Source: Acaryochloris marina MBIC11017 (lineage in GTDB: Bacteria > Cyanobacteriota > Cyanobacteriia > Thermosynechococcales > Thermosynechococcaceae). Taken from it: a stretch of 32,000 nucleotides of DNA. The stretch lies in the NCBI RefSeq assembly GCF_000018105.1, contig NC_009925.1, forward strand, positions 3,660,001 through 3,692,000, given 5' to 3'. Position numbers and translations under genes: made by a program. Of this stretch, positions 7,296-25,909 are shown one piece after another; the first letter of the stretch is position 1; each line of letters starts with the position of its first letter. The notes beneath the pieces were generated by a model that was not told where the DNA came from, ran no database searches, and saw only the letters and a program-made list of their open reading frames with translations.

Positions 7296-8230
7296 CCATC
7301 AACCTCAACGGCTGTAAGATCACGTACTTTAATTAGGCTATCAGTGTTGACATCATACAAAGGCATATCCTTCATGACTTCTAACCCTGCTTCAAAATCA
7401 AGAAAAGATAGTTCACCAGTACGAGAACGTGAAATTCGAAACTTTGATTTCACATAAGCTTCTTCAGGAGTATAGGCTGGAAGATCGCCTAAGACATCAT
7501 CTCTAACAAAAAAGATATTATTGCCTTCTGAATTAGAACCGACTAACGAGTATCCTTTTTGCTTAGCTAAGACATGAAAGGCAGTAATCGAAGCACCCCA
7601 GTACAATCCAGAAAAGTGAGCTTTATGTATCATGAAATCTGGATCATATGGAGTTGTTACAGCATATTTGTACCCAAAAAGACTGTTGTATTCGCATATG
7701 ACAATTCTAGGCTTGATACTTTCAATGGATTGCCACACCCAATAGTCATTCCCATCAATATCAATTGAGAGGATTCCAATATCTCCATGTATGTCATTAC
7801 TAGAAATAAGCTGGTTAATGTTATTTCTAGTAATGAAAGAATGTTCGGTTCTCAAGTCATATTTCCAGGGTAAGTCACTTTGTCTTATTTTTTGAATATT
7901 CTTCTCGGAGCCATCAATTATTAAGCCAGACCAGTTGCGATTTTTTAACATAAAACGAGTATTCGATTCTGAATAATCGCCTACGCCGAACTCTACAAAT
8001 ATCCGGTTTTTTATTGATATATTATTGATCAAAAACTGGAGAATTCCATCTTCTCCCCATTGAGAGAAGACTTGAAATTCATAGTCATGTAAATCCCTAG
8101 ACTTTATTCGATCTAGCTGTCGCATTTCCAATCTTCCCACTGCCTCTTGAAGGCGTTCAATACGATCTACTAATGTTGCTAACTCATCAGCTGCTGAGTA
8201 AAGTCTTTGGAAGAATTTTGAAAGTTTCAT
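7292..8230 (-). CDS. putative methyltransferase (FkbM/Methyltransf_21-like) with an N-terminal coiled-coil segment
   Basis: The pattern FSQWGEDGIL...FVEFGVGDYSESNTRFML...WSGLIIDG resembles SQxGED...FVExG...SNT...WxGxxIE proteins that are usually annotated as FkbM-like. The assignment is from memory only. Confidence 0.45.
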   Translation of the reverse strand: MKLSKFFQRLYSAADELATLVDRIERLQEAVGRLEMRQLDRIKSRDLHDYEFQVFSQWGEDGILQFLINNISIKNRIFVEFGVGDYSESNTRFMLKNRNWSGLIIDGSEKNIQKIRQSDLPWKYDLRTEHSFITRNNINQLISSNDIHGDIGILSIDIDGNDYWVWQSIESIKPRIVICEYNSLFGYKYAVTTPYDPDFMIHKAHFSGLYWGASITAFHVLAKQKGYSLVGSNSEGNNIFFVRDDVLGDLPAYTPEEAYVKSKFRISRSRTGELSFLDFEAGLEVMKDMPLYDVNTDSLIKVRDLTAVEVDG

Positions 8231-8233: not shown

Positions 8234-8839
8234 TCAAATCCAACGAATAAAACATGCTGGGTTGCCAGCATATATCGAATGAGGTGGGACATCTTTAGTC
8301 ACAACGGAAGCAGCTCCTATAACTGCACCTTCACCAATTGTAACACCCTTTAAAACAGTAGCATTAAACCCAATCCAAACATCATTATGAATTTGTATAG
8401 CAGATGAAGGAATTTCTAGTTCACTTTTAGGATGTCCATTTGTTACTATTTCCAGAAAATGATCATATCTCAGCTGCTTATTTAATGGATGTCCGTCAGT
8501 ATCATGGATATTGACATTGTGTGAAATCAGTACACGATTACCTATTTCTACTTTGTTAGCCGACCATATTCGAGAATTCTCTCCAACATAACAATCTTCA
8601 CCTACTTGAATATGTCCTGCATGTCCAAATGTAAGCAATTCGCCAAGTAAATGAGTCTTTGAACCTATGTTGATTGCTAATTTATCTCCTCGTATATTAA
8701 TGACTTTTGCAGTATGAAATATCTTGGCATTGCAATCAATAGTGGCAATAGAACGATAATGCATGCTTTTTATAAGTCCTATCACTTTATAGAGAGCCTG
8801 TAAAACTATGTATGGTAGACTCTTTAAAAAGATCAACAT
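8234..8839 (-). CDS. hexapeptide-repeat (left-handed beta-helix) sugar O-acyl/acetyltransferase
   Basis: It shows imperfect hexapeptide repeats (IGNRVLISHNVNI, WIGFNATVLKGVTIGEGAVIGAASVV) and a C-terminal VPPHSIYAGNPA motif. Confidence 0.8.
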   Translation of the reverse strand: MLIFLKSLPYIVLQALYKVIGLIKSMHYRSIATIDCNAKIFHTAKVINIRGDKLAINIGSKTHLLGELLTFGHAGHIQVGEDCYVGENSRIWSANKVEIGNRVLISHNVNIHDTDGHPLNKQLRYDHFLEIVTNGHPKSELEIPSSAIQIHNDVWIGFNATVLKGVTIGEGAVIGAASVVTKDVPPHSIYAGNPACFIRWI

Positions 8840-10047: not shown

Positions 10048-11427
10048 CTATCTTTGTGAAGCAAGAGTAGGTTGTGTCTTCTTGCTTCTTACTAAGCGAG
10101 ACTTACGCATTATCAAGTAGATCAAGAAGTTTAGTCCTAGACCAAAAGAAAATAATGTTGTCAGCAAGTTCCCCTCTGAGAGAAAGAAAGTTGACATTGA
10201 TAATGAAACATATGTACCCAGAACCATAGGGGTTTTTTGAGACTTTACAAACCATTGATGGTAGTACGATAGCAGGAAAACTACTAACAGTGATTGGAGC
10301 ACTACTCCAAAGTAGCTAAAGTCAGCCCAGGCAGTACCAATAAATGCAGCATTCCAAGATCCAGTGGCATCATATATATCACCAAAAGCAATATAGCCTC
10401 GTATAACACGTCCTGGATCATGAATAAAATCACTACCTGTAAATATATTCATAAAGGAAGAACTAGCACCATATAAATGTGGAAATATATCTGGATACAC
10501 ATGAAAGTGTAGTTGTAAGGTTCTTGTCACTTCACCGCTTAAGCGATTGACAACTGCCATTAAAGCGACTTGATAATTAATACTAGGATATTGAATCCAA
10601 TACTGAAAAGGAAGTAGAAAAAATACTAAAAACATGACGGCTAAAGCGGAACGTTTCCCAATCTTGCTAGCAAGGGAAATCGTGATATTTCCAGATGCAA
10701 GCAGCCAACAAAAAAAGGTGCCCAATAGAATTAAGACGATTCCACCTTTTTGTCCTGATATCAAATTTAGTAATAAGGTAATACTTAATAAGTATATAAA
10801 TAGAAACGTGTATCTTTTGCTTTTCTTTCTCATGAAAAACAAGATATAAGTACATAGTGGTAGTGCAGTGAATTTAAGAGTGTTAGCTACTCTCAATAAT
10901 ATACCGTTAAAACTACTTACGCTTTCTCCATAAGCAAGCCTTGCTGCTTTATAGGCTTCGCCAGAAAAATTTCCAGAAAATAAATAAGTGAGAAAATCAG
11001 TTCTCCATAATACAACAAAGGTTAGTGTAGATATGCTAAAAGCAAAAAGTGGAAAAATACTTCTCAAATCACTTGCTTTTCGTGTGGATAAGTTTGCTAT
11101 TGCCTCTTTATATGCTTTTCGACTGAGCTTTCGTTTTCCAAAAAAGGGTCGGGAAATTATGATACCAATTATAAAACTGATATACATTAGCATTAAAGAA
11201 GCAGTCCATCTTAGCAAGACTGCTTCTGGCAAATCCAAGCCTATTTGCTCATAATTAATATCTATTGTAAAAGGAATCATTATTCCATGCTTGATAAAGA
11301 AAGCATAGAAAAATACTGTAAATATACTTAATCTAGAGAAACAGCAGGTTAATTTTTCAAGTAAGATACCTATTATAAATAAGAATATGTACCATCCTAT
11401 TAGAAAAGTAATGTTTCCTATGCCCAT
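10048..11427 (-). CDS. polytopic membrane protein, candidate O-antigen/EPS repeat-unit polymerase (Wzy-like)
   Basis: 459 aa with at least 10 hydrophobic segments, and very AT-rich. It lies in a locus that also encodes Wzx. The call is by context and topology only. Confidence 0.55.
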   Translation of the reverse strand: MGIGNITFLIGWYIFLFIIGILLEKLTCCFSRLSIFTVFFYAFFIKHGIMIPFTIDINYEQIGLDLPEAVLLRWTASLMLMYISFIIGIIISRPFFGKRKLSRKAYKEAIANLSTRKASDLRSIFPLFAFSISTLTFVVLWRTDFLTYLFSGNFSGEAYKAARLAYGESVSSFNGILLRVANTLKFTALPLCTYILFFMRKKSKRYTFLFIYLLSITLLLNLISGQKGGIVLILLGTFFCWLLASGNITISLASKIGKRSALAVMFLVFFLLPFQYWIQYPSINYQVALMAVVNRLSGEVTRTLQLHFHVYPDIFPHLYGASSSFMNIFTGSDFIHDPGRVIRGYIAFGDIYDATGSWNAAFIGTAWADFSYFGVVLQSLLVVFLLSYYHQWFVKSQKTPMVLGTYVSLSMSTFFLSEGNLLTTLFSFGLGLNFLIYLIMRKSRLVRSKKTQPTLASQR

Positions 11428-11478: not shown

Positions 11479-12891
11479 TTAGGCGCGAATAACCTGCTGA
11501 TAAATAGCTTTTTCTTGTTGTGTTGATAGTCGACTATTATGCCAAAGCAAGGTGAAGTTCCCTTCGAATAATCGACAGATGTCTTTTATTCCTTTAATTG
11601 TCTTCAAGGCTTCTCCATTAGATAAGTTTAAGTTCATATAGTTGTACTCCAGTATGGTTGAGTCCATGATAATTAGTGGACGCTCGAACAAACTTAGACA
11701 TTGCCTTGAAATGAGATTAAATACTGGAAAGTCGAAGCAAACTCCACATCGGAATCCCACGTGTTCTGGGAAAGTTAGTGTTGAATCATAGGTTAATCTA
11801 GCTTCCGCTAGATTCTGCCAAGTTATTGGTGTAGACCACCTAAGGCAATGTTGACGTGCACCCCAAATATCTTGGTGAATATCTTCTTGCGCACAAGCGG
11901 CTAGCAAGGCCTCAAACTCTTTTCGAGTTTGCTTGCTATCTTTATAAGTGTTGAAGCTGGAATGAAGTCCTAGTTCATGCCCTCGATTCTTAATCTTGGC
12001 AAGCAAATCGCGCATCAATGGATGATCTAAGTTGTAGTCTCCATCAATGGGGTGACAGGTGTGATCTGCAATAAAGTAGAAAGTGCTTTTAAGTCCCTGT
12101 GTTTCGCTGACCTGCATAATAAAATCAAAAGTGTTGCAGGGATCAGCTATTAGATTTCCCTGCTTTACTTCAAGCCAAGACTTTATACTGTTTGCTGCTG
12201 TTATTAAACTCTTACGACGGACTACATCTCCCAGACAGCGTCTGAGCAATCTATTTGGCCCAGAGAAAACATAGCGAAATGGCTCATCCACATCATGACT
12301 GACGTAAGTTTGAAAATGATGGTGTCTTCTTGTAAGCCTTGGCCACAGAACCAACAGATATGTCCAGAGGATTTCGATGTATTCATTAACAATTGGTCGC
12401 ATTATAAAGTTTTCTTGATAAGCCAAAGAGGCCGAGACTGGAAACCGATCTAGCGAATCGCGCTCGGTTTTAACCACTTCTTCATAACGCGTCAACATAA
12501 AAAAGGCAGATCCCAATATATCTAACCCCAAATAAATTTGATTTTCTCTTTGAGATACGAAGTCGGGGTTATGTGGATTATCGCCAAAAATGACAGGAAT
12601 ATTCGGGTGAACTAACTGTGCTTCTAAGTTCGTAGTGCTGAACTTCCATATCTTGAGGGGGTGAGCTGGCAAGGAGGTTTGCGTTAGCCATAAGTGTTTT
12701 GGTGTCGAGAAAAGGGTGTCTGCAATGATTAACTGCCGATGATCACTAGCCGTAATGATCACATTAGATTGGGAGTGTTTTGTGATTTGAATTTGAAGCC
12801 CTAGAAATTCTTCAAAAATGACTCGAACTATATATCTCCGTTCTGCCCAATATGAATCAGGCATCTCAATTTGCAGTGTTGGTTTAGACAC
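11479..12891 (-). CDS. two-domain protein with a polysaccharide deacetylase (CE4-like) C-terminal region and an uncharacterised N-terminal domain
   Basis: The blocks SHDVDEP, ELGLHSS and LLWHNS resemble the deacetylase/NodB-fold superfamily. The N-terminal DILGSAFFMLTRYEE block is seen in DUF-type partners of such enzymes. The start is GTG at 12891 (AAGG upstream), with an alternative ATG at 12864. Confidence 0.55.
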   Translation of the reverse strand: MSKPTLQIEMPDSYWAERRYIVRVIFEEFLGLQIQITKHSQSNVIITASDHRQLIIADTLFSTPKHLWLTQTSLPAHPLKIWKFSTTNLEAQLVHPNIPVIFGDNPHNPDFVSQRENQIYLGLDILGSAFFMLTRYEEVVKTERDSLDRFPVSASLAYQENFIMRPIVNEYIEILWTYLLVLWPRLTRRHHHFQTYVSHDVDEPFRYVFSGPNRLLRRCLGDVVRRKSLITAANSIKSWLEVKQGNLIADPCNTFDFIMQVSETQGLKSTFYFIADHTCHPIDGDYNLDHPLMRDLLAKIKNRGHELGLHSSFNTYKDSKQTRKEFEALLAACAQEDIHQDIWGARQHCLRWSTPITWQNLAEARLTYDSTLTFPEHVGFRCGVCFDFPVFNLISRQCLSLFERPLIIMDSTILEYNYMNLNLSNGEALKTIKGIKDICRLFEGNFTLLWHNSRLSTQQEKAIYQQVIRA

Positions 12892-12930: not shown

Positions 12931-13170
12931 TCATGCACTAGTGTTTTCAACTGCTGTAATAATTGATTTTACAGACTGTAATTCAGCGATTTGTTCATCA
13001 TCAAACTGAACATCAAACTCCTCTTCAATGGCTAGAACTAAGTTGATATGCTTCATAGATTCCCATTGTTCAATGGATGCTGGCGAAGAGTCTAGAGTGA
13101 GCTTATCTGTCGGGATATTGAGGATATTGGAGATGACTTGAATAACTCGTTCTTGATTTGTTGCAGGCAT
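12931..13170 (-). CDS. acyl carrier protein (stand-alone, 79 aa)
   Basis: It has the size and four-helix pattern of an ACP. The candidate phosphopantetheine Ser lies in IEQWESMKHINLVLAIEEEF. An AGGAG SD lies 10 nt upstream, and the gene starts 5 nt after the FkbH-like stop. Confidence 0.8.
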   Translation of the reverse strand: MPATNQERVIQVISNILNIPTDKLTLDSSPASIEQWESMKHINLVLAIEEEFDVQFDDEQIAELQSVKSIITAVENTSA

Positions 13171-13175
13171 AGGTA

Positions 13176-14966
13176 TTAGTCTCCTTTAGTTACCTGAGAG
13201 ATAATTTCTCCAACAAAACGGCTTGTGGGCACGTCTTGGGAATAGGCAAGGTCTAAATAATACCGTCCAGCAGCCTGTTCAGTGAAATTGCGATCGCAAT
13301 AAAATGATTGGACTTGCATATTCTTGGGTGTAGGTTTGTACTGTCCCTCAATAGTCTGACACTCTCGATATGATGCGAGTTTGAGAATCTCACGCAAAAA
13401 TGCCTCTTCAACATGTCTGCCTAGCACTCGGCAAGACAGCAACAGCGAATCAATCACCGCATGGTCATCTTGATAGTTAACAATACAAACCCCGACAATA
13501 CCGTAGACGCCAAATTTGTCTTTCAACTGTAGGTATAAAACATCTGACGTTGAGCAACTGATAAAATCTGCAATATCCGCTTCAGAATATCGTTGGGTCG
13601 TCAAGTTAAATTGATTCGTTTTTTGAGTCAACTGTGCTATCCGTGGCACTGAGAACTCATCAGCAAAAGAGATCTCAGCAACCATTTTTAAGGATTCATG
13701 GTATTGGGCAATGCTCGTAAACTGTTGTTGAGCTTGGGTGCGCTGCCGGGCCGCAGAGTACATGGCGCCACGGTTTAAGTCTTCTTGGGTGAGGGCTAGC
13801 ATGTCAAACCAACCACAGCTCGCTAACATTAGACGGTAGTCTGTTGACCGTTTACTGGGTAGGTGGATGGTTTCTATCTCAGGAAGCAGTTGTCGGACAA
13901 GATTGACTTCAAATTCGCTATCGTCCACAAATACTAAGCTATCAAGTCCTATGTTTAACTCTTCTGCGATGTGACAGAGGTTTTGGGCTTTGTCATCCCA
14001 ATTAATTTGGGCACAGGTAATATGAGATTCTTGTAAGACCATGTCAGGATGATTATGAAATACATCCCATACTTCGGCTTCATTGTTCTTGCTACACAAG
14101 GCAATCAAAATCCCTTGATGGTAAAGGGTCAGAATTTCTTGCTGAAATTCGTAGAAACTAGAACCAGGATAAGAATTAGCGCTTAATTTGATACCGGCGA
14201 GACCATCTTCACCAATCACGCCTCCCCATAGGGTGTTATCACAGTCGAGGACTAGACATTTTTTGTTTTGTCCTTTTAAGGCCCGAATATATTTAAATAC
14301 TTCAGTCGCTATCTCGCATAATGCTTGTCTGGTATAGGGTGATCGACCGATATGCCAATAGCGATTATCAAAGTAATGATGGCTGCCGATGCGGGCAAGG
14401 GGTAAATCTAAATCAACGAAATAACTATTCTCTTGCTTGAGCAAGATACTTTGTATGGCAGCATTTAACCCTTGTATAGTTGCGGTTTGCCCTGTCTGCC
14501 TTTGCAGGTCAAGAATACCCCAACTGGGATAAAGTGGACGCTCAAAACCCATCCATAAGATCATGGCTGTGGTTTGACGACGAATTCCTTGGATAATCGT
14601 TTGAGCATACTCTAGAATTCGATCACATTCTGCATCAACCTCCGCCGCCGTTAAGGTGGGAAAACATTGGGCTAATTGAGTAGATAAAACTTCTAATTTC
14701 AGAAAAACGAGAACACAATCTGTTTGACTACTGAACAGTTGTGGATTGTCTTCAAGCGCATCTTGAATGCTGCAATCGTACCCTCCCCACTGCACCTGGG
14801 CAGAGAATCCCATTTGATAAGCAAAATAGGTAAGATACGGCTCTATGGGCTCAACAGTAATATTTCGCAGAACCGAAATACCCAGCTCGGGTTGATTTTC
14901 CGCCGATATCTGATTCAGAACATCCTGAATCTCAGAAAAGGTCAACATTATCTTTTCGCTGTACAT
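13176..14966 (-). CDS. FkbH-like HAD-IIIC family protein (glyceryl-ACP loading enzyme family)
   Basis: It carries the HAD-IIIC signature LVLDCDNTLWGGVIGEDG, a downstream LCSKNNE block and VFVDDS, and a C-terminal GNAT-like region. An alternative ATG at 14948 forms TAATG with the upstream stop. Confidence 0.85.
   Translation of the reverse strand: MYSEKIMLTFSEIQDVLNQISAENQPELGISVLRNITVEPIEPYLTYFAYQMGFSAQVQWGGYDCSIQDALEDNPQLFSSQTDCVLVFLKLEVLSTQLAQCFPTLTAAEVDAECDRILEYAQTIIQGIRRQTTAMILWMGFERPLYPSWGILDLQRQTGQTATIQGLNAAIQSILLKQENSYFVDLDLPLARIGSHHYFDNRYWHIGRSPYTRQALCEIATEVFKYIRALKGQNKKCLVLDCDNTLWGGVIGEDGLAGIKLSANSYPGSSFYEFQQEILTLYHQGILIALCSKNNEAEVWDVFHNHPDMVLQESHITCAQINWDDKAQNLCHIAEELNIGLDSLVFVDDSEFEVNLVRQLLPEIETIHLPSKRSTDYRLMLASCGWFDMLALTQEDLNRGAMYSAARQRTQAQQQFTSIAQYHESLKMVAEISFADEFSVPRIAQLTQKTNQFNLTTQRYSEADIADFISCSTSDVLYLQLKDKFGVYGIVGVCIVNYQDDHAVIDSLLLSCRVLGRHVEEAFLREILKLASYRECQTIEGQYKPTPKNMQVQSFYCDRNFTEQAAGRYYLDLAYSQDVPTSRFVGEIISQVTKGD
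13290..13297. repeat. HIP1 palindrome GCGATCGC
   Basis: Perfect 8-mer. Confidence 0.9.
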
Positions 14967-15376
14967 TCCAGAATTTCAACCAGGCCAAACCCATGTATCT
15001 GATAGAAAGACACCTTCTGAAAATTGAATAAAATTGCAGGCTTAGGGGGAGAAATCGTGATTATGCGATGTTTATGACGAAGTTGATCTACAGTCTGTTC
15101 CACATTCGCACTGACATAACAGAGATGGTAAATGATCTGAGGCTGCTCGGATAGCCATTGATCGAGAGGCCCCGGTGAATCAGCTGGGTAGATCAACTCC
15201 ACATCAGGCATAGATGAATGCTCACCCATCCTTAAGTTGACATTCTGCAACTCATCATATGTTTCAGGACCAATCTGATAATTCAGATCGTTCAAGAAGT
15301 GGATGGCTTTTTGTGGCTTCCGAACAGCCAGGCCAAAATGATGGAAATCCAATCCAAACGGGTTAGAGCTAAGCAT
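14948..15376 (-). CDS. VOC-superfamily protein (glyoxalase / methylmalonyl-CoA-epimerase fold)
   Basis: The paired motifs FHHFGLAV... and ...YHLCYVSANVEQTV are typical of VOC proteins. The track start at 15379 is TTG, and the ATG is at 15376. Confidence 0.65.
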   Translation of the reverse strand: MLSSNPFGLDFHHFGLAVRKPQKAIHFLNDLNYQIGPETYDELQNVNLRMGEHSSMPDVELIYPADSPGPLDQWLSEQPQIIYHLCYVSANVEQTVDQLRHKHRIITISPPKPAILFNFQKVSFYQIHGFGLVEILECTAKR

Positions 15377-16295
15377 CAACCTTGCCCAGAATAAGAGCGA
15401 TATTAATCGGCAGCTTGTCCTGTTCAGATGTCGCCAAAGTCGTTGATTGGTATGGAATCAACAATTGATGCTTGATATATAAACCACTAGCTTTAACCAT
15501 ATTGGCAATATCCTGAGCGTGCTTAAACAAGTAGATATGGTCAATAGCGGGAGAATTAATACAGGTTGTCACATGAATATGTGAGTTACCGTGGGTCAGT
15601 GCAGCAATCTTCTGCAGAAATTGTTGAGGTTGCTCTACATGCTCCAGTACTTCTCCCATGACTACTGCATCATATTGATCACTGGGCTCCCACGTTAAAA
15701 AGTCACACTCTTTGATATCGTAATTCTCGAATTGACCAAAATAGTGGCTAGAAAGAATTTTTTGAGTCAGCAACACGCTTGTAGGACTAATGTCGATTCC
15801 CAAGAACTGATCATACTGTGAATGTTGCATGGCTTCCATCATGTGAAAGCCATGTCCTGGACCAATTTCCAAATATCGTCCAGACTGCGTCTTAGGTAAC
15901 ATCTCCTTAAAAAACTGTTTCATTTGAGCATGATTAGGCCATAAAAAAGTCGTGATGGCTAAGCCATACATATACATGCTCATATAGTCTGCATTGCGAT
16001 AAACCAAAGACTCAACTTCAGCATAAGACGAATGCTTATAGTGCCCGTGGCGCTTGAAGTAGAGCTGTTGCGTAAAAGTATCTTTGACAATTAAGTCATA
16101 GCATTTAGCTAAGTACCCTAATGTTAATTGCTGATCCAGACAATAATTAAGGTATTGGCTAAAAAGTTGAATGTCACTTTTCGACAGAGTTTGAACTGCG
16201 TCTGCCAGGAAATTGCTTTGGAGTTTATTTATTCTCAAAATTTCTTGAATAAGCTCATCAATCACGGAGATCGACAAAGGTCTTGTTGAGTGCAT
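15369..16295 (-). CDS. class I SAM-dependent methyltransferase with an N-terminal helical domain
   Basis: Motif I is YLEIGPGHGF, and YDAVVMGEVLEHVEQP follows. The track start at 16316 is TTG. The ATG at 16295 is preceded by AAGGGA. Confidence 0.75.
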   Translation of the reverse strand: MHSTRPLSISVIDELIQEILRINKLQSNFLADAVQTLSKSDIQLFSQYLNYCLDQQLTLGYLAKCYDLIVKDTFTQQLYFKRHGHYKHSSYAEVESLVYRNADYMSMYMYGLAITTFLWPNHAQMKQFFKEMLPKTQSGRYLEIGPGHGFHMMEAMQHSQYDQFLGIDISPTSVLLTQKILSSHYFGQFENYDIKECDFLTWEPSDQYDAVVMGEVLEHVEQPQQFLQKIAALTHGNSHIHVTTCINSPAIDHIYLFKHAQDIANMVKASGLYIKHQLLIPYQSTTLATSEQDKLPINIALILGKVDA

Positions 16296-16402
16296 GTAGA
16301 ATCCCTTATTTATCAATACTAAAATAAATAGAATATGGTTAGATGATGGGCTATTGAGTCTGAGGTTATAAATATAAAAAAGCTATACGTCTTTTACTCT
16401 GT

Positions 16403-17344
16403 TCAGGATTTCAATGCTTTGCGCAGTAGTTGCTTTGTCGCTTTTGATAAATTAAAAATTAATGAACCTGTATCCCAAACAGTAACTCTTTTAGACTCAT
16501 AAATATGAACTGCAGCATCAAAAAAATCTTGAATTTTAAATGTGAAGAGCTTAACTCCAGATCGAGTTAATGTTTGTGAGTTGGAGATATCTAGCAAGTT
16601 AAAATAATAAATAGGGTCATACCCACCTTTAGGGAAAGTTTCAGGGTTTCGCATGAATGTACTGACTTGCTGCTCACACCCATCAGATGACTGCACTGTG
16701 AATTCTTCAGGCTCTTCATAATAGATTGTGTGCTTAAACCTTTTTTTGAAGTGGTCTTCAATCATATGACATGGTGTAAATGCTTCAAAGCCAACGCCAA
16801 TCCCCAAATATTTCCCCCCAGCACTCATCATCTGATAGTAAGGTGACAAAGGACCAAAAGGATAAGGACATAAATGGTGACTATCAGAGAATAGATGGGC
16901 TTTTCGACCATAAGAAACAGCACTAAAAATAGGATTTAGGCTGCGCACGGAACCTTTCTTCCTGCGAAGTATTTCAGCTAGCATACCGGACTCAGTCGCT
17001 GTTTTCTTGGCATTAAATATCTTTTTTTTTGCTGATATTTGATCGCGGCCTACAGGAAAGCATAATGCCATTACTGTGCTTTCTTCTCCTAAATAAGCCA
17101 TGAGATCTTTGAGCATAGATTGCACGGGAACTAACTTGCCGGTCTTTAAATAGATTTGATCTTGAGAACACATCAAGAATAGAGGATCTCCAGGGAGAAT
17201 CCCAATTCTCTCTAAGCCTTCAACAAAGTCTTCAGAGTCATAGTCAATATATTTCTGAGCCAAAAAAGGTCGAAATAATTTAAGTCTAAATTTTGCGATT
17301 GATTGCCTGGAGATACCTCGGGCTAGAGTTTGTATATAGCGCAT
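16403..17344 (-). CDS. AAC(3)-family (Antibiotic_NAT fold) N-acyltransferase, probably a sugar N-acyltransferase
   Basis: The blocks GILPGDPLFLMCS, SGMLAEILRRKKGSVRSLNPIFSAVSYG, GPLSPYY and GGKYLGIGVGFEAFTPCHMIED match the AAC(3) family pattern. The ATG is at 17344 (the track start GTG is at 17347). Confidence 0.7.
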   Translation of the reverse strand: MRYIQTLARGISRQSIAKFRLKLFRPFLAQKYIDYDSEDFVEGLERIGILPGDPLFLMCSQDQIYLKTGKLVPVQSMLKDLMAYLGEESTVMALCFPVGRDQISAKKKIFNAKKTATESGMLAEILRRKKGSVRSLNPIFSAVSYGRKAHLFSDSHHLCPYPFGPLSPYYQMMSAGGKYLGIGVGFEAFTPCHMIEDHFKKRFKHTIYYEEPEEFTVQSSDGCEQQVSTFMRNPETFPKGGYDPIYYFNLLDISNSQTLTRSGVKLFTFKIQDFFDAAVHIYESKRVTVWDTGSLIFNLSKATKQLLRKALKS

Positions 17345-17364: not shown

Positions 17365-18657
17365 TTAACCTGCATCTAAAGTGTTGCGATTTGAGCAGCT
17401 AAAGGAATAGCTCATGACGCCGCTCACCAAATACAAAACACAAAATGCTATCGAAAATAGTAACACTGATGATTCATCACTCTGAAAGATGGTATATCCT
17501 ACCCAGATTGAGCTAATTGAAAGGAAAAACCTAACGATTTGCCATACTAGATCTAACTCTTGCTTTTCGGCAATAATAAACATTGAGCAAAGAGGGATCG
17601 TAATAAATTGGCAAAACAGCATTGGTGACAGCAGACGCGCATAAACACCAGATTGAACCCATGCTTGACCAAAAAATAAAGTAAACAAGTAAGGACTTGC
17701 AATTAGAAAAACAGCAAAAGGTATAACAGCGATTAGCAGGAGGTACTTGAATGTCTTTAAAAAAAGTTGACTGCACTCCCCTTTAGCGATGTACTGCTTA
17801 GAGGCTGCTTCGCGAAAAACATCACTAATTGCATTACCAAGCAGGGCCATCGGCAGCGCTATGACTCGAAACGTTAGTGAATAAAAGCCCGAAAATGCAG
17901 GGCCGTAAAGACTTTGAAATAGCATAATGGGCATATTCCCAGAGACCGCATTCATCATGTGCCCGAGCAACAAGAATTTCGGGAATTTGATATGACGTTG
18001 AGCTTGTTGCTTAATGCGCTTAAGATTGATATCGACTAGTCCTGGATGCTTAAGTAGGAAGGCCAGCATTTGATAGACAGCATATATAACCCCAATAAAC
18101 TGCCCGAATACATAGCCAATCACTAAACCAACATCAGATACCTTATAAAGAGCCAGCTGAGTGGTTACTACAGCCAAAGATAATGTCACCTTATTGAAGG
18201 TAATAATTCTATATGATTTAACGCGATTAAACCAATAGTATGTTGATTGATAAGCAGCTAGTAAAAATATTGAAATTGGTAAAAGACGTAAGTAAGTATT
18301 TAAGTTTTTTAGGCTAACAATGGTAGCAATTGGACCACTAAACCCATAAAAAAATAACCAAAGAAATATACAAAAAGTTGCAGCAAGACTAATGCATAGC
18401 ACAACAATATTGAGAGCATCGCCATCTTCTTCAGGTAAGATGATGGACTGCTCATACCGGCCAGTAGCTGGGATGGCCATGATAATTGAGATAGACATGA
18501 AGAGGGCTAGCCCACCAAATGTTTCTGGCGAGTAGACTCGGGTTAGAACTGGCGACAAAACGACTGGAATGGCTTGTGCTAAAGCAGTGCCTGTCATCAA
18601 TGTGAAGACATTACGGAAGAAGGGTATGTTCGTGAGTTTCTGACTACGCTTCAGCAA
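17365..18657 (-). CDS. wzx: Wzx-type oligosaccharide flippase (polysaccharide biosynthesis protein, MOP superfamily)
   Basis: 430 aa with about 12 TM segments. The N-terminal pattern FFRNVFTLMTGTALAQ..P.LTRVYSPETFG is typical of Wzx. The start is TTG at 18657, because the first ATG would truncate the conserved N-terminus. Confidence 0.7.
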   Translation of the reverse strand: MLKRSQKLTNIPFFRNVFTLMTGTALAQAIPVVLSPVLTRVYSPETFGGLALFMSISIIMAIPATGRYEQSIILPEEDGDALNIVVLCISLAATFCIFLWLFFYGFSGPIATIVSLKNLNTYLRLLPISIFLLAAYQSTYYWFNRVKSYRIITFNKVTLSLAVVTTQLALYKVSDVGLVIGYVFGQFIGVIYAVYQMLAFLLKHPGLVDINLKRIKQQAQRHIKFPKFLLLGHMMNAVSGNMPIMLFQSLYGPAFSGFYSLTFRVIALPMALLGNAISDVFREAASKQYIAKGECSQLFLKTFKYLLLIAVIPFAVFLIASPYLFTLFFGQAWVQSGVYARLLSPMLFCQFITIPLCSMFIIAEKQELDLVWQIVRFFLSISSIWVGYTIFQSDESSVLLFSIAFCVLYLVSGVMSYSFSCSNRNTLDAG

Positions 18658-18681: not shown

Positions 18682-19836
18682 TTACCCAAAGTAGAATTTT
18701 TGGATAGTTTTTATGATGATGTTTTGAGTATCAGGCTGAAGCTCTGGCCAAATCGGTAGACTTAAGACTTCTTGGGTATATTGACTACTCACTTCCAGCG
18801 TATCGTACTGGCCCAGATAAACAGGTAGCTGATCTTGAGGGACGGGGTAATAGATCATCGACCCTATATCATGGTCTGCTAGATACTGCTTGAGCGCATC
18901 ACGCTTCCCATCTAAGACGCGAACTGTATATTGGTGGAATACATGTCCTTTAACAACCTGTGGTGTCACAATCCCAGGTAAATTTGCTAAACCGTCATTG
19001 TAACTTTGGGCAACTTGGCGACGTCCTCTATTCCAACCGTCGATATGCTGCAATTTGACCCTCAAAATAGCCGCTTGAATAGCATCAAGACGAGAGTTAT
19101 ATCCTAATACCTCATTGTGATACTTCTTCAACGCCCCATGGACGCGGAGCATCTTAGCGGTCTCTGCAATGGCATCGTCATTTGTGGTGATGAGACCTCC
19201 GTCACCATAAGCCCCTAAATTCTTAGATGGGAAAAATGAAAAGGCCCCAACATCTCCTATCGTTCCTACTGCTTGATCGCGGAGGTGGCCAACTTTTAAT
19301 GGGTCGTTGGCTGACTCATTGTTGTCTTCATCACTCCTATAGTGTGCTCCAAATGCCTGGGCACAATCCTCAATCACTTTTAGATTATATTTTTGGGCAA
19401 CTTTTATAATGGTCGCCATAGCCGCTGGATGACCATATAAATGTACGGGTAAAATGGCCTTAGTCTTTGGGGTAATTTGAGCTTCAATGTGATCAGCATT
19501 TAGGTTAAATGTTTGGGGATCAATATCCACAAATATCGGTTTGGCCCCTACATTACTGATCGATTCTGCTGTAGCAAAAAACGAGAAGGGAGTCGTAATG
19601 ACCTCATCTTCTGGCCCTATCCCAGATGCTTTAAGGCCAATGACTAAAGCATCGGTGCCTGAGTTGACACCAATTGCATGTTGGACCCCGAGGTAAGCGG
19701 CCACTTCTTGCTCAAACTGTTTGACTTCCGGTCCCATAATGAAAGCGCCAGATTCCAGGACCCGATCAAGAGCAGTATGGATGTCGGTTTTGATGCTGGC
19801 ATATTGGGGTTTGAGATCAAGAATCGGAATTTTCAT
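18682..19836 (-). CDS. wbpE: DegT/DnrJ/EryC1-family PLP-dependent sugar aminotransferase (WbpE-like by context)
   Basis: It has GVNSGTDAL and FSFFPSKNLGAYGDGG (the PLP Lys region), and it sits next to wbpD/wbpB/wbpA-like genes. Confidence 0.8.
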   Translation of the reverse strand: MKIPILDLKPQYASIKTDIHTALDRVLESGAFIMGPEVKQFEQEVAAYLGVQHAIGVNSGTDALVIGLKASGIGPEDEVITTPFSFFATAESISNVGAKPIFVDIDPQTFNLNADHIEAQITPKTKAILPVHLYGHPAAMATIIKVAQKYNLKVIEDCAQAFGAHYRSDEDNNESANDPLKVGHLRDQAVGTIGDVGAFSFFPSKNLGAYGDGGLITTNDDAIAETAKMLRVHGALKKYHNEVLGYNSRLDAIQAAILRVKLQHIDGWNRGRRQVAQSYNDGLANLPGIVTPQVVKGHVFHQYTVRVLDGKRDALKQYLADHDIGSMIYYPVPQDQLPVYLGQYDTLEVSSQYTQEVLSLPIWPELQPDTQNIIIKTIQKFYFG

Positions 19837-19845
19837 GCCTGGGTA

Positions 19846-20445
19846 CTAAAGTTTGCGGACTTCTATTTCAGTGACTTTTTGATATTGGTTACCTGCTGAG
19901 TCTACAGCATAGCCAGTGTTGTCGAATTCTAAAATATCTCCATAGGCACTCATCCAACCTACGAGACGGGCTGGAACACCAGCAACCATGCCGTAGGCAG
20001 GAACATCCTTAGTAACCACTGCTCCAGCAGCAACGAACGCACCTTCGTGTAAGGTTACTCCACAGACAATAGTGGCATTGGCACCTATACTAGCGCCGCG
20101 TTTGATCCAGGTTTTATGGTAGTCAGCACTGGTATTACGTGGAAATTCACACCGAGGTGTTTTAACGTTGGTAAACACCATACTGGGGCCACAAAAGACA
20201 TAGTCTTCTAAGATGACACCTTCATACAGGGAGACATTATTCTGAATTTTGCATTGATTGCCGATGATGACATTGTTCGCAACAGTCACATTTTGACCTA
20301 AAACACAGTTTTGGCCGATTAGGGTTTTGCCATAAATATGACAAAAATGCCAAATTTTAGTCCCTGTACCAATCTTTGCACCTTCATCGACATAGGAAGA
20401 TTCATGAATAAAATAGTCTCGTTGCTTTCTATTTGACTCACCCAC
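19846..20445 (-). CDS. wbpD: UDP-2-acetamido-3-amino-2,3-dideoxy-glucuronate N-acetyltransferase-like hexapeptide transferase (WbpD/WlbB-like)
   Basis: The blocks KIWHFCHI...GQNV...[30 protein letters not shown] and [11 protein letters not shown]...[22 protein letters not shown] match the WbpD/WlbB pattern. The GTG start overlaps the wbpB-like stop by 8 nt. Confidence 0.82.
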
Positions 20446-21382
20446 GCATTGCCTCCTGGGCCTTTTCTAAAATGTCAACTACGGCAACTCCATTCCAACC
20501 ATTCGATCGGGGCTGTTGGCGTGTTTTCAAACATTCAAGGAAATGTTCGCACTCTAACTTAAGGGGCTGTGTTGTCGCTACGTTAGCGAGCCAGGACCCT
20601 GTATCTGTATTTTGAAGATTGGTATCAATGGATTTTTCGTAAACGGTGACTTGTTGGGTGACTTCGTCATAAACCAGCATTTGCTGTTCTGCCAGGATAG
20701 TGGTGCATCGCTGTAGTAAAGGGTGATACCAAGACGCATGAATATGAGCGGTTTGGCCATTCTCAAAGACCAAATCAACATGCACATTATCTTCAACATC
20801 CGGCTGAAGTATGGCATGACCGCTGGCTTGGATGGATTTGAGCGTCGGGTTGCCCAGTAGATCGAGAACAACGGAGACGTCATGGGGGGCAAAGGACCAC
20901 CATACATTTTCTTCTGCACGGACTCTTCCCAACTTGGCTCGTTGGGCCATAACATGGAGGACTTTACCTGCTTTTCCAGTAGAGAGATAGTCTCTCATCC
21001 ATGCGATCGCAGGTTGATACAGCAATAAATGTCCCACCATCAAAATGAGATCGTGTTGATCGGCATATTTCGCCAATGCGATCGCATCTTGTGTGTTTAA
21101 GGTCATTGGTTTTTCGATAAATACATCTTTACCGGCAGCTAAAGCTGCTTTTGCCAATGAATAATGGGTCGGTGCTGGTGTTGCAATGACAATGGCCGAA
21201 ATGTCGGTATTTAAAACATCGCGATAATCAGCATACACCTGAAGATCTGGATAGCTATTGGCTACCGCCTGACGCAAATCTGAACTCATTTCAGCCACTC
21301 CTGCTAAAGCATTGAGTTCATGAAAATTCTTGACGAGGTTCTTACCCCAGTTTCCTGCGCCGACGACAACAACTTGTTTCAT
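20438..21382 (-). CDS. wbpB: Gfo/Idh/MocA-family oxidoreductase (WbpB-like UDP-GlcNAcA 3-dehydrogenase by context)
   Basis: It has an N-terminal Rossmann motif [12 protein letters not shown] and the EKP motif (FIEKPMT). It is 314 aa and lies between wbpA-like and wbpD-like genes. Confidence 0.75.
21003..21010. repeat. HIP1 palindrome GCGATCGC
   Basis: Perfect 8-mer. Confidence 0.9.
21078..21085. repeat. HIP1 palindrome GCGATCGC
   Basis: Perfect 8-mer. Confidence 0.9.
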
Positions 21383-21409
21383 AGAGAGACTGACGAATTC
21401 TAAATGGAT

Positions 21410-22750
21410 CTAGAGCAGTGTAATTTTAGATTGATATGAGGTAGATTGTGCGTCTGATAATTTTCGGGTAATCCCACGAGTATCTAGTATTGCCGTTGAC
21501 TGTTCTACTAAGTGAGCATAGTCAACGGCGGAATGGTCTGTGGCAATAATGACTAGATCATATTGACTTAAGGTTGTGTTCCCGAAATCAACGGATTGCA
21601 TCTGATGCCCTTCAATCGTAATTATTGGCACAAAAGGATCATAATAATCCAAGCTCACGTGATCGCGTAATAGTAGCTTAACGATGTCAATAGAAGGAGA
21701 TTCACGCCAATCTCCTAAGTCTTTTTTATAAGCAACTCCCATGACCAGCACTTTCGCTTTTGATGGGGCTATACCTATCTGGTTCAGGGTTCGTAGCGTT
21801 TTTTCTCTGACGAATTCGGGCATCCGCCGATTGATCTCTCCTGCTAAAGCAATAAAATGAGTTTCAAAATTGAACTCCTTAGCTTTCCACTCTAGATAAT
21901 GTGGATCAATGGGAATGCAGTGCCCGCCAACCCCTGGCCCAGGATAGAAAGGCATAATCCCAAAAGGCTTGGTGTTAGCGGCATCCAGTACTTCCCAGAC
22001 ATTCAGATCCATGCGATCACATAGCATGGCTAACTCGTTGACTAGAGCAATATTGACTGCCCTAAAGGTATTCTCAAAAACCTTAACTAGCTCAGCAGCT
22101 TTAGCGCTGCTGACGGGAACGACGTGATCAATGGTTTGCTGATAAAAAAGGGTAGCGATTTCTAGGGAGACAGGGTCAGATGCACCAACAACCTTATTGG
22201 TATTCTTAGTGGTGTAACGCTGATTACCAGGATCAACCCGTTCAGGAGAGTGGCCTAAGAAAAAATCTTTACCTTGCGTTAAGCCGCTAGACTCCAACAC
22301 AGGTTTAATCACTTCATCCGTTGTACCAGGGTAAGTCGTTGATTCAAGGGTAATCAATTGACCGGAACGCAATTCTGGTGCTATCCCCTGGGTCACGCTC
22401 TCGATATAAGAGAGGTTTGGAGTCATATTTTTGGATAATGGTGTTGGTACGCAAATCACCAATACATCCATGTGCGAGACCTGATCAAACCCACAGATAG
22501 CCTTGAGCTTACCGTTGGCAACTACTGCTGCTAACTCATCAGAATCAACATCATGAATGTAATTTTGAGCTGCATTTACAGCATCGGCACGATCGGGATT
22601 CTGCTCCACTCCAATCACATGAAATCCCACTTTGGCCTTTTCGACAGCAAATGGTAATCCTACATACCCGAGGCCGATTACTCCAACAACTGCTGTACGA
22701 TCAAGAATTTTTGCTTTTAAGTGATTAAACAAATTAGATGAATCAGACAC
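21410..22750 (-). CDS. wbpA: UDP-N-acetyl-hexosamine 6-dehydrogenase (nucleotide-sugar dehydrogenase, WbpA-like by context)
   Basis: It has VIGLGYVGLPFA NAD binding and the catalytic-Cys region GPGVGGHCIPIDP. It is 446 aa. The start is GTG at 22750, with no nearby ATG. Confidence 0.75.
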   Translation of the reverse strand: MSDSSNLFNHLKAKILDRTAVVGVIGLGYVGLPFAVEKAKVGFHVIGVEQNPDRADAVNAAQNYIHDVDSDELAAVVANGKLKAICGFDQVSHMDVLVICVPTPLSKNMTPNLSYIESVTQGIAPELRSGQLITLESTTYPGTTDEVIKPVLESSGLTQGKDFFLGHSPERVDPGNQRYTTKNTNKVVGASDPVSLEIATLFYQQTIDHVVPVSSAKAAELVKVFENTFRAVNIALVNELAMLCDRMDLNVWEVLDAANTKPFGIMPFYPGPGVGGHCIPIDPHYLEWKAKEFNFETHFIALAGEINRRMPEFVREKTLRTLNQIGIAPSKAKVLVMGVAYKKDLGDWRESPSIDIVKLLLRDHVSLDYYDPFVPIITIEGHQMQSVDFGNTTLSQYDLVIIATDHSAVDYAHLVEQSTAILDTRGITRKLSDAQSTSYQSKITLL

Positions 22751-25005: not shown

Positions 25006-25873
25006 TGAGGTAAACCTTAAGGGGAGAAGTCTCGGTGCTACTTTAGTAGACTGAATAATAAAGCGATGGGTTTCTTTGCGTGTGTTTTTGTGGCTGTTGT
25101 TAGTAAAAAGCTATTCTTTGTCAAAATATAAAAGTTCATAAAAATTATACTGGATTCTTAATTATTTTTCTCATCGCAATATAATCTTTGGATCTACTGC
25201 ATGGAGGCTGTCAGTGCAGAAAATAGGCCAGGTAATCGAGGTGAAATTAAATGCATAGGGTGTTCATATCAATACAGTTCAAAAGACAACCTTTTCTCAG
25301 CAAAACAACTGCAGGATGGTTGAAGATATATCTAGAACATCTTTTAACCAAGCCATATTAGTTTTTGTAAAGAGTTAAAGAGCACCTCAGAAACTAGATT
25401 GACTTGAGATTTGAAGGGCCTGTAAATACTACAGTATTGATAAGGCTCGTTTATACTCCATCAGGATTTATTTTTTTAGATAATCCTAGTCAATTTAAAG
25501 CTATACGTGCGTAGTAAAAGGAAGTTGAGTTGAGGTTGGCAAGTACTGCTAGTTTACGATAAACATATTGTGCGTTGTTGCTATTTCAATTCCATGATTT
25601 GATCGCATTTAAGTTAAATACTTTAGTCTGTTATAAATGCCAAATCATTTTTAATGATATTTCAATGATACTTAAGTGTGAATCTCTTAGTTCGATCTAA
25701 ATTGACGACTCAAAAAGAGAGGATCTATCTGGTTGAAAAGTTAGGTTTTAATGAGGTAAAAAGACTTCGATGCAATCATATTGGGGTCTCTATCTCTATA
25801 TAGACAAACTCAACTTATTTTGACCAAGTTCTATCGACTTCATCTTTCTTGAGGGTCAATCTAGAAGTAGGAT

Positions 25874-25903
25874 TTGTTAGTCTCTGGACTTCAAACGTAT
25901 ACT
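25874..25903 (+). promoter_or_regulatory. candidate promoter of a short plus-strand transcript
   Basis: TTGTTA (25874-25879), an 18-nt spacer, then TATACT (25898-25903). Confidence 0.3.
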
Positions 25904-25909
25904 GATTCT

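Follow-up and report, generated by a model that had tools for sequence, protein, structure and literature searches.

Five tightly packed genes on the minus strand of Acaryochloris marina MBIC11017 lie between those for a Wzx-type flippase and a Wzy-type polymerase (Table 1; the window denotes the whole 32,000-nucleotide stretch of DNA that was analysed). The open reading frames lie where the preliminary description had placed them, and its account of the junctions agrees with the sequence: the stop codon of the methyltransferase gene and the ATG of the VOC gene overlap by 8 nt, the VOC stop codon and the second ATG of the FkbH gene form TAATG (with a start at the upstream ATG, 14966, the two genes overlap by 19 nt instead), and the ATG of the carrier protein gene follows the FkbH stop codon by 5 nt, with AGGAG 10 nt 5' of it. 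Two starts have alternatives, namely 14948 for FkbH, which would yield 590 aa, and an upstream TTG for the methyltransferase, which would move the gene end to 16316. The cassette is translationally coupled. Profile searches with TIGR01686, PF00550, PF02522 and VOC and methyltransferase families bore out all five assignments made in the preliminary description.

Table 1. Genes of the cassette and its flanks, in window coordinates.
Feature	Position	Strand	Match or domains
Wzy-type repeat-unit polymerase	10048..11427	minus	TIGR04370, 44.5 bits (cutoff 40)
VimE-like de-N-acetylase (DUF7033 + CE4-like)	11479..12891	minus	DUF7033, E=2.6e-31
Dedicated acyl carrier protein (ACP), 79 aa	12931..13170	minus	PF00550, E=1.6e-6
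Long-form FkbH, 596 aa, AM1_3617	13176..14966	minus	N-terminal domain, HAD-IIIC, GNAT-like Cys domain
VOC (glyoxalase/epimerase-fold) metalloprotein	14948..15376	minus	Glyoxalase_4, E=1.3e-12
Class I SAM methyltransferase	15369..16295	minus	Methyltransf_23/12/31/11 matches
AAC(3)-fold N-acyltransferase	16403..17344	minus	PF02522, 89.5 bits (cutoff 25)
Wzx-type flippase	17365..18657	minus	Polysacc_synt_3, E=2.8e-16; directly upstream of cassette
WbpA-, WbpB-, WbpD/WlbB-, WbpE-like genes	18682..22750	minus	predicted supply of UDP-2,3-diamino-2,3-dideoxy-hexuronic acid

AM1_3617, a 'FkbH domain protein' in GenBank, scores 303 bits against TIGR01686 (cutoff 146.65) over residues 235-562 and matches the HAD-IIIC family TIGR01681 (E=1.3e-17); the FkbH signature pointed out earlier, LVLDCDNTLWGGVIGEDG, is found at residues 238-255. 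PDB 3SLR is the best structural match of its AF2 model, whose C-terminal domain adopts a GNAT fold. The catalytic residues, on whose presence the preliminary description had made its reading depend, are in place: the protein retains both its HAD motif and the cysteine of SCRV, and D241/D243 (DxDxT), S292, K326, D348/D349 and Cys512 (SCRV) are invariant across 20 long FkbH proteins as well as in two canonical short ones, the first from a methoxymalonyl cassette (FkbK/J/I/H) of Streptomyces and the second from an NRPS/PKS cluster of B. cereus. Judged by its sequence, AM1_3617 is proposed to be a glyceryl-S-ACP synthase. In the adjoining carrier protein Ser38 lies within a W-[D/E]-S-[L/M] motif and is kept in all 56 cassette ACPs (56/56).

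The remaining cassette proteins are likewise conserved at their putative active sites. The methyltransferase bears a ~130-aa N-terminal extension and resembles UbiG and BioC weakly; 35 cassette-linked homologues all keep its GxGxG motif (G145/147/149) and D168. The VOC protein matches the methylmalonyl-CoA epimerase model TIGR03081 weakly (E=8e-5), and H12/H13, E60, H84 and E134 are invariant among 14 cassette VOCs; because a Rivularia locus does without it, this protein is best regarded as an optional accessory. The cassette-linked AAC(3) homologues, among them short forms like Cj1296/7 and a fusion, AAC3::DUF4910, all retain the RS.HP motif and His193.

The interpretation put forward in the preliminary description, an acyl group borne by the ACP and moved to a sugar amine, is supported, but the adjacent VimE-like de-N-acetylase had been missed. 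This protein matches the VimE model NF053580 with E=7.9e-51 and 173 bits, well under the equivalog cutoff of 440, which speaks against our reading; its position is kept in the Rivularia and Chamaesiphon loci. Its place beside the cassette suggests a swap of acetyl for acyl, and we propose that it frees the acceptor amine. Upstream lie the Wbp genes, whose order is identical in Rivularia. The WbpA-like gene encodes UDP-sugar 6-dehydrogenase domains, the hexapeptide transferase (WbpD/WlbB-like) matches WlbB (3MQG, E=1.3e-58) and the DegT protein matches WbpE (E=3e-78) and also QdtB; the WbpB-like gene encodes a GFO/IDH/MocA oxidoreductase with no close match to solved WbpB/WlbA, a point against our reading. 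Given the VimE-like gene downstream and WbpA/B/D/E upstream, the acceptor is likely a 2,3-diamino-uronic acid on which one N-acetyl group is exchanged.

On balance we consider it probable that the cassette serves a Wzx/Wzy heteropolysaccharide of A. marina as an ACP-dependent module for acyl donation and acyl exchange; most likely it builds an O-methylated glyceric-acid group on the ACP and then joins this group to an amino sugar. By homology, FkbH would take 1,3-bisphosphoglycerate, its HAD site (D241/D243) removing the 3-phosphate, and the acyl group would be captured by Cys512 and handed on to the ACP, at the phosphopantetheine borne by Ser38, to give glyceryl-S-ACP. The methyltransferase is proposed to O-methylate this thioester at one or both hydroxyls, as its conserved adjacency and the Campylobacter jejuni product described below would suggest, and the VOC metalloenzyme might conceivably act as a C2 epimerase of a 2-hydroxyacyl thioester, inverting C2 via an enediolate. 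In parallel WbpA/B/E/D would produce UDP-2,3-diacetamido-2,3-dideoxy-glucuronic acid. The VimE-like enzyme would take one N-acetyl group off this product, and the Wbp/Vim pathway makes N-2 the most likely site by analogy. The amine so exposed is proposed to receive the ACP-bound (O-methyl)glyceroyl unit through the AAC(3)-fold enzyme, presumed specific for acyl-ACP, and the repeat unit would then be flipped by Wzx and polymerised by Wzy.

A survey of related loci places this module in sugar-decoration loci across many bacterial phyla (83 loci fetched; neighbour families drawn from 80 loci of GTDB species representatives; AAC3 and hexapeptide transferase genes counted in 76 non-duplicate loci). 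The ACP gene directly follows FkbH in 73 of the 83 loci, a methyltransferase gene lies directly upstream of FkbH or of VOC-FkbH in 34, and a VOC gene stands between the two in 14, with a median gap of -1 nt; such frequencies argue that the arrangement is not due to chance. Nor are the homologues confined to PKS/NRPS surroundings, which the preliminary description had held would tell against it: the neighbours in the 80 multi-phylum loci are glycan genes. Those found in at least six of them comprise sugar aminotransferases, hexapeptide, GNAT and AAC(3) transferases, glycosyltransferases, NeuB, nucleotidyltransferases, deacetylases, Asn-synthase-type amidotransferases, radical-SAM enzymes and stand-alone AMP-binding enzymes; ketosynthase and condensation domains are absent among the families recurring at this frequency. 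Seven of the 14 ORFs of at least 800 aa were scanned against Pfam, none of the seven being a PKS or NRPS, and another four are similar to an ORF that was scanned or had an annotation already. Co-occurrence of the five genes in other glycan loci, left to comparative genomics in the preliminary description, is found in Chamaesiphon (the full set, accompanied by Wbp genes and by this deacetylase), in nonulosonic-acid islands of two gammaproteobacteria and in Bacteroidales; Alteromonadaceae and Psychromonadaceae are among the families that carry the full set.

The chemistry is less new than first supposed, as N-glyceroyl-Pse (Tannerella) and 2,3-di-O-methylglyceroyl-Pse (C. jejuni) are known, and the C. 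jejuni locus has the same gene types by published annotation. In strain NCTC 11168 Cj1295-Cj1302 (5-N-(2,3-di-O-methylglyceroyl)-pseudaminic acid, flagellin) includes an FkbH/HAD-IIIC protein (Cj1302), an 'epimerase' (Cj1301), a SAM methyltransferase (Cj1300) and N-acetyltransferases (Cj1296/7 and Cj1298), the roles of Cj1296-1302 being putative. C. jejuni makes CMP-Pse7Ac5(2,3-di-O-methylglyceroyl), for which Cj1295 is required; the authors of that work propose that Cj1295 removes the 5-N-acetyl group, so that proposed N-acetyl removal followed by installation of a methylated glyceroyl amide is common to both systems. Besides the published annotation, the link is based on orthologous nonulosonic-acid loci: in nonulosonic-acid and flagellin loci, L043, L047 and L066 among them, the MT-VOC-FkbH-ACP-AAC(3) set adjoins a Cj1295-like amidohydrolase. 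In A. marina the acyl group would go to a diamino-uronic acid of the Wbp type, destined for a Wzx/Wzy polymer, whereas in C. jejuni the acceptor is a CMP-nonulosonic acid for flagellin, and the amidohydrolase is of the DUF7033/CE4 VimE-like type in the former and DUF4910/M28-like in the latter.

Other parallels concern single parts of the scheme. For the Wbp/Vim linking sugar of Porphyromonas gingivalis and Tannerella forsythia, WbpA/B/E/D are likewise followed by a VimE-type de-N-acetylase, which strips the Wbp product of its 2-N-acetyl group before a transferase acylates the amine anew; there FemAB-like VimA adds Ser or Gly, whereas an AAC(3)-fold enzyme with an ACP-borne donor is proposed for A. 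marina, whose deacetylase falls under the VimE equivalog cutoff. The FkbH/OzmB/ZmaN glyceryl-S-ACP synthases of the methoxymalonyl-ACP, hydroxymalonyl-ACP and tetronate pathways share with AM1_3617 the HAD-IIIC and Cys domains, the catalytic residues and a dedicated ACP, but their acyl group becomes a polyketide unit rather than the sugar amide proposed here. Unlike those pathways, the window (all non-shadow ORFs from 100 aa upwards) lacks, as had been noted, a ketosynthase, an acyltransferase domain and FkbK/FkbI-type dehydrogenases, and it holds no FabH-like condensing enzyme, condensation gene or PKS. Tannerella forsythia Pse5Am7Gra (N-glyceroyl pseudaminic acid), the genetic basis of which was described as unknown in 2017, likewise carries an N-glyceroyl amide on a sugar of the bacterial surface; the sugar differs from that of A. 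marina. The Bacteroidales loci L071 and L078 carry VOC-FkbH-ACP-MT-AAC3.

The choice of transferase admits another reading, a possible but unlikely one, by which FkbH, ACP, methyltransferase and VOC make a glycerate-derived acyl-ACP that another transferase uses, or that is esterified to a hydroxyl, while the AAC(3)-fold protein is an acetyl-CoA-dependent sugar N-acetyltransferase. Aminoglycoside acetyltransferases and FrbF use acetyl-CoA; to our knowledge characterised AAC(3)-fold enzymes all use acyl-CoA, and we know of none shown to use acyl-ACP, which counts against our own reading. The solved relatives in the PDB are these same acetyltransferases and FrbF. Candidates for the other transferase exist in the window, namely a second hexapeptide transferase (8234-8839) and an unassigned 312-aa protein (7292-8230). 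AAC3 genes lie within 4.5 kb of FkbH in only 8 of the 76 non-duplicate loci, against 23 of 76 with a hexapeptide transferase after the ACP, and in many loci hexapeptide, GNAT, FemAB-like or AMP-binding genes take that place. A C. jejuni NCTC 11168 variant with Cj1296/7 out of frame continued to produce the dimethylglyceroyl sugar (Table 1 of PMC3068675), so that this AAC(3)-type gene is not essential there; on a plasmid of Rhodobacteraceae FkbH-ACP is accompanied by an MBOAT, an indication that certain systems use O-acylation. Against this stands the close tie of AAC3 to the methyltransferase type of cassette: seven of the eight loci have a methyltransferase as well, and AAC3 never shares a strand with the MaoC-SDR type. 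It directly follows the ACP in four loci (L043, L047, L066 and L028) and adjoins an amidohydrolase in most, of the DUF7033/CE4 type in three cyanobacteria, DUF4910/Cj1295-like in the same four loci and Peptidase_M20 in L065, and in L003/L015 it is fused to a Cj1295-like (DUF4910) amidohydrolase. N-acetylation is, moreover, already covered by WlbB in the window.

That the glycan-linked long FkbH loads a non-glycerate acyl group from another phosphorylated precursor, leaving a substituent not derived from glycerate, appears improbable. Its ~235-aa N-terminal domain is missing from the canonical FkbH proteins compared, and the tailoring partners are highly diverse (MaoC-SDR in 36 loci, B12-radical SAM in 9); yet all catalytic residues match canonical FkbH, the TIGR01686 score is twice the cutoff, and the same domain occurs in a tetronate/butenolide-type Streptomyces FkbH, adjoining FabH-like, KS, ACP and PPTase genes, where the accepted product is glyceryl-ACP. 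Known products in bacteria with such loci are, furthermore, glyceroyl and di-O-methylglyceroyl amides. Although FkbH is best known from polyketide pathways and PF02522 is named after resistance enzymes, a diffusible small molecule or lipid (tetronate-like or another secondary metabolite) made by a cassette placed here by chance, or an AAC(3) conferring aminoglycoside resistance, is highly implausible for a coupled cassette set between Wzx and Wzy in a window without the condensing and dehydrogenase genes listed above, since the NCBIfam AAC_3 resistance models score far under their cutoffs (55 vs 270) and the arrangement is repeated inside the Wbp loci of two other cyanobacteria.

The glycan locus of Acaryochloris marina MBIC11017 is a single block in which all genes but one lie on the minus strand, with a GC content of 34–44% compared to 46–49% in the flanks. 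It runs from a WbpM-like dehydratase through WbpA-like, GFO (WbpB-like), WlbB/WbpD-like and WbpE-like DegT genes to Wzx and the five-gene FkbH cassette, which is followed by a 470-aa DUF7033/CE4 protein (VimE-like) and Wzy, and thereafter by glycosyltransferases, a second hexapeptide transferase, two further methyltransferases and an epimerase/reductase. All five cassette genes that the preliminary description had read from the sequence, encoding an AAC(3)-fold transferase, a SAM methyltransferase, a VOC protein, FkbH and an acyl carrier protein (ACP), were found on the minus strand at the positions listed in the table, and HMM searches bear out their family assignments. The junctions are also as described: the methyltransferase gene shares 8 nt with the VOC gene, the VOC–FkbH junction is a TAATG, or a 19-nt overlap if the upstream ATG is used, and the ACP gene is preceded by a 5-nt gap and an AGGAG. 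A dedicated stand-alone carrier protein of the type expected for the FkbH family is present directly after FkbH, and its phosphopantetheinyl serine (Ser38) is retained in 56 of 56 cassette ACPs. The VOC protein possesses an H/E/H/E metal site and a weak similarity to methylmalonyl-CoA epimerase. The methyltransferase found no match in a PDB sequence search; its GxGxG motif and D168 are invariant amongst cassette-linked methyltransferases, as are an RS.HP motif and His193 amongst the AAC(3)-fold proteins of FkbH-linked loci.

Features of the window, with the evidence for their assignment
Feature	Position	Strand	Evidence or remark
6S (SsrS) RNA gene	1276-1458	+	Rfam RF00013, 92 bits (gathering score 46)
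tRNA-Leu(UAA)	~1536-1851	-	Exons readable in the sequence
Group I intron in tRNA-Leu(UAA)	1598-1830	-	RF00028, 77.8 bits
Glycan locus	2118-25005		
312-aa ORF	7292-8230	-	No Pfam match
VimE-like deacetylase	11479-12891	-	DUF7033 + CE4-like
ACP	12931-13170	-	PF00550, E=1.6e-6
FkbH (AM1_3617)	13176-14966	-	TIGR01686, 303.4 bits (cutoff 146.65), residues 235-562; TIGR01681 HAD-IIIC, E=1.3e-17
VOC protein	14948-15376	-	Glyoxalase_4, E=1.3e-12
SAM methyltransferase	15369-16295	-	Class I methyltransferase domains
AAC(3)-fold protein	16403-17344	-	PF02522, 89.5 bits
WbpA/B/D/E-like genes	18682-22750	-	
Gene-poor, AT-rich gap	25006-26728		34% GC, strong positive GC skew
47-aa ORF	26334-26477	-	Lipobox (LLGAC) and SPEA repeats
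DDE_5 transposase adjoining SAM hydroxide adenosyltransferase (chlorinase/fluorinase family) gene	27534-28847 and 28941-29723	- (both)	

The FkbH gene, annotated as encoding an 'FkbH domain protein', specifies a member of the TIGR01686 family that is predicted from its sequence to load glycerate from 1,3-bisphosphoglycerate. The catalytic residues anticipated in the preliminary description are in place: D241, D243, S292, K326, D348, D349 and S511-C512-R513 are invariant across 20 long homologues drawn from many phyla (53–87% identity to the A. marina protein), and the HAD-IIIC motifs (DxDxT, S/T, K, DD) together with S511-C512-R513 remain so once the comparison takes in two canonical short FkbH proteins, one from a Streptomyces plasmid on which an FkbK-like/ACP/FkbI-like/FkbH set adjoins a type I PKS (locus L085) and one from a B. 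cereus NRPS/PKS cluster. We take C512 to be the acyl-enzyme nucleophile by analogy with work on OzmB. The AF2 model, from which only domain folds were taken (mean pLDDT 68.6, with residues ~187-311 of the HAD core mostly below 50), comprises an N-terminal domain, the HAD region and a C-terminal GNAT fold; the first two are best matched by PDB 3SLR (B. fragilis BF1531), and residues ~410-590 match GNAT structures with a TM of ~0.7. The N-terminal domain of ~235 aa is specific to the long form of FkbH, and nearly all of its 665 representatives in 50%-identity clusters are N-terminal in proteins of ~590–630 aa. It also occurs in a Streptomyces homologue encoded beside FabH-like, KS, ACP and PPTase genes (L086), a tetronate/butenolide-type context, where the generally accepted function of FkbH is to form glyceryl-ACP.

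Searches with the A. marina protein find upwards of 8000 homologues, and identity stays at ~55% across Cyanobacteria, Planctomycetes, Deltaproteobacteria, Omnitrophota and Acidobacteria. Eighty loci fetched from GTDB species representatives were compared by tblastn and ORF clustering. Of 83 loci, 73 have an ACP gene directly after FkbH and 34 have a homologous methyltransferase gene immediately upstream of FkbH; in 13–14 a VOC gene is inserted between methyltransferase and FkbH. According to Pfam, the neighbouring gene clusters include DegT aminotransferases, hexapeptide transferases, GT2 enzymes, epimerases, Asn-synthase amidotransferases, AMP-binding proteins and GNATs, and furthermore B12-radical SAM proteins, NTP-transferases, Cj1295-like DUF4910/DUF2172 proteins, NeuB, polysaccharide deacetylases, FemAB-like proteins and AAC(3). 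Seven of the 14 ORFs of at least 800 aa in these loci were scanned and no PKS or NRPS was detected amongst the seven; a further four are similar to one of these seven or to an annotated flagellin. Given these glycan neighbours and the lack of PKS or NRPS genes amongst the large ORFs scanned, the possibility entertained in the preliminary description, that such cassettes are confined to the vicinity of PKS/NRPS genes, is refuted. The full methyltransferase-VOC-FkbH-ACP-AAC(3) set recurs in Chamaesiphon, together with Wbp genes and the deacetylase seen in A. marina, in Bacteroidales, and in nonulosonic-acid islands of Alteromonadaceae and Psychromonadaceae that carry NeuB, a CMP-sugar synthetase, DegT and a Cj1295-like protein; Rivularia has the A. 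marina locus without the VOC gene.

Other arrangements around the long FkbH were also encountered. Long-form FkbH-ACP pairs are present in two archaeal MAGs (L008 and L032; an unclassified archaeon and Halobacteria), with 52–56% identity to the cyanobacterial protein, which points to wide horizontal spread. In 31–36 of 76 loci (for example L022:8790-9971 and L057:3515-4924) the gene immediately upstream of FkbH-ACP encodes a MaoC-dehydratase::SDR fusion, often with no methyltransferase or VOC gene. If glyceryl-ACP were dehydrated and then reduced, lactyl-ACP would result, as in the bryostatin loading module, and the MaoC-SDR loci look like a second, commoner branch of the same donor system. 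Genes for B12-binding radical SAM proteins adjoin FkbH in 9–12 loci (including L036–L042 and L045, the latter with three copies) and may serve the C-methylation of the ACP-bound acyl group. On the Rhodobacteraceae plasmid pSC52_6 (L087, 7059-12846) the order ACP-FkbH-MBOAT-hypothetical-VOC-acyltransferase, with sulfotransferase genes alongside, suggests a Dlt-like route whereby an ACP-borne acyl group is passed via the membrane MBOAT for extracytoplasmic O-acylation.

Where AAC(3)-fold genes occur in FkbH loci they are nearly always accompanied by an amidohydrolase, the type of which varies: DUF7033/CE4 in three cyanobacteria, DUF4910/DUF2172 in four loci (L028, L043, L047 and L066) and Peptidase_M20 in a Sericytochromatia MAG. 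In a deltaproteobacterium (L003/L015, 11071-12855) the two domains are joined in one 594-aa AAC(3)::DUF4910/DUF2172 (Cj1295-like) fusion protein encoded after methyltransferase, FkbH and ACP, in the company of ~1070-aa flagellins, Maf and a B12-radical SAM gene. Seven of the eight loci with an AAC(3) gene within 4.5 kb of FkbH also include a methyltransferase, and in the loci compared AAC(3) never shares a strand with the alternative MaoC-SDR tailoring gene. Many FkbH loci employ transferases other than AAC(3), and FemAB-like genes accompany FkbH in three (L007, L016 and L027). We know of no AAC(3)-fold enzyme that uses an acyl-ACP.

The acceptor is suggested by the Wbp genes. The WlbB/WbpD-like protein matches 3MQG strongly (E=1.3e-58), the DegT protein is close to WbpE (E=3e-78) and WbpA domains are present; no solved WbpB/WlbA is a close relative of the GFO enzyme. 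The DUF7033/CE4 protein, overlooked in the preliminary description, matches the VimE UDP-GlcNAc3NAcA deacetylase model NF053580 with E=7.9e-51; at 173 bits it falls below the equivalog cutoff of 440 and is therefore a VimE homologue rather than an equivalog. A PDB sequence search with this protein gave no match. The 312-aa ORF that also lies within the locus could be an unrecognised transferase.

Pathogens such as C. jejuni and T. forsythia bear hydroxy-acid amides, including N-glyceroyl, methylated glyceroyl and related groups, on their nonulosonic acids and O-antigen sugars. In one case the origin of such a group has been tied to a single gene, Cj1295; the genetic basis of N-glyceroylation of Tannerella Pse was described as unknown in 2017. 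Flagellin of C. jejuni NCTC 11168 carries 5-N-(2,3-di-O-methylglyceroyl)-Pse, the formation of which needs Cj1295, a protein proposed by the authors to cleave the 5-N-acetyl group and thereby permit its substitution. The corresponding locus holds genes for N-acetyltransferases (Cj1296/7, Cj1298), a SAM methyltransferase (Cj1300), an 'epimerase' (Cj1301) and an FkbH/HAD-IIIC protein (Cj1302). A variant of C. jejuni in which Cj1296/7 is out of frame nevertheless makes the dimethylglyceroyl sugar (PMC3068675). In the P. gingivalis Wbp/Vim system VimE is proposed to strip the 2-N-acetyl group from the Wbp product, which VimA then re-acylates. Both systems follow the same acyl-swap logic that we propose for A. 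marina. The C. jejuni-type set of FkbH, ACP (in C. jejuni presumably Cj1299), methyltransferase, VOC/'epimerase' and AAC(3)-type protein is complete in A. marina, as it is in L043 and L047; in contrast, DUF4910 and NeuB genes are absent and DUF7033/CE4 and Wbp genes stand in their place. No VimA FemAB-like aminoacyl transferase of the Wbp/Vim kind was found amongst the ORFs of the window. Campylobacter was absent from the best 120 matches to a Campylobacterota FkbH and from those to the Cj1295-like protein of L066, and the link to C. jejuni consequently relies on the published annotation and on orthologous nonulosonic-acid loci. In the literature searched for FkbH in connection with polysaccharides or glycans, the only relevant statement found was the description of cj1302 as an 'fkbH domain-containing gene'.

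The better-known destinations of FkbH products have to be weighed against this acyl-swap reading. A methoxymalonyl- or hydroxymalonyl-ACP pathway (FkbG/H/I/J/K) or a tetronate glycerate-utilisation operon would likewise employ an FkbH with a dedicated ACP; however, both are rejected because the partner enzymes that they require are absent. As the preliminary description had maintained, no KS, AT, FkbK or FkbI homologues exist amongst the ORFs of the window, whereas FkbK- and FkbI-type dehydrogenases are present in Streptomyces L085, and the FabH-like enzyme that adjoins FkbH/ACP in Streptomyces L086 is likewise missing. Aminoglycoside resistance, which the AAC(3) fold might call to mind, is rejected since the family cutoffs are not reached (the best NCBIfam AAC_3 model gives 55.2 bits where 270 are required, and only the fold-level PF02522 passed) and the surrounding genes do not suit such a role.

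According to the acyl-swap reading, FkbH would turn 1,3-bisphosphoglycerate into glyceryl-S-ACP, which the methyltransferase would O-methylate and the VOC protein might optionally epimerise at C2; removal of an N-acetyl group from the Wbp product would free an amine, onto which the AAC(3)-fold enzyme would move the acyl group. More broadly, we tentatively advance a joint reading whose chances we judge to fall a little short of even: long-form FkbH and ACP would form the core of a widespread C3 hydroxy-acid acyl supply for bacterial and archaeal surface glycans, delivered by an amidohydrolase/transferase acyl swap, with the AAC(3)-fold proteins as the first acyl-ACP sugar N-acyltransferases and a new O-methylglyceroyl-diamino-uronic acid in the envelope polysaccharide of A. 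marina. The system would supply glyceroyl and O-methylglyceroyl groups, and probably lactyl groups where MaoC-SDR partners are present. Neither the enzyme family nor this kind of substituent is new in itself; new would be the pathway proposed to join the two and its application to a Wbp-type sugar in a cyanobacterium. The cassette and its conservation across phyla offer a concrete, testable route from a glycolytic intermediate via a carrier protein to a sugar amine, and predict a specific and unusual envelope sugar for Acaryochloris. If true, FkbH chemistry would extend from polyketides to glycans, AAC(3)-fold proteins would gain a physiological role outside antibiotic resistance, and the many homologues currently labelled 'HAD-IIIC family phosphatase' could serve as markers of acylated glycans.

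The flanks of the glycan locus harbour several further features (table). On one side lie the 6S RNA gene and a tRNA-Leu(UAA) whose anticodon loop is split by a group I intron, a classic cyanobacterial arrangement; an ARAGORN scan of the window reported no tRNA, this one included. On the other side, upstream of the WbpM-like gene, a 1.7-kb gene-poor gap contains a small ORF with a lipobox, and beyond it a transposase gene adjoins one of the chlorinase/fluorinase family.
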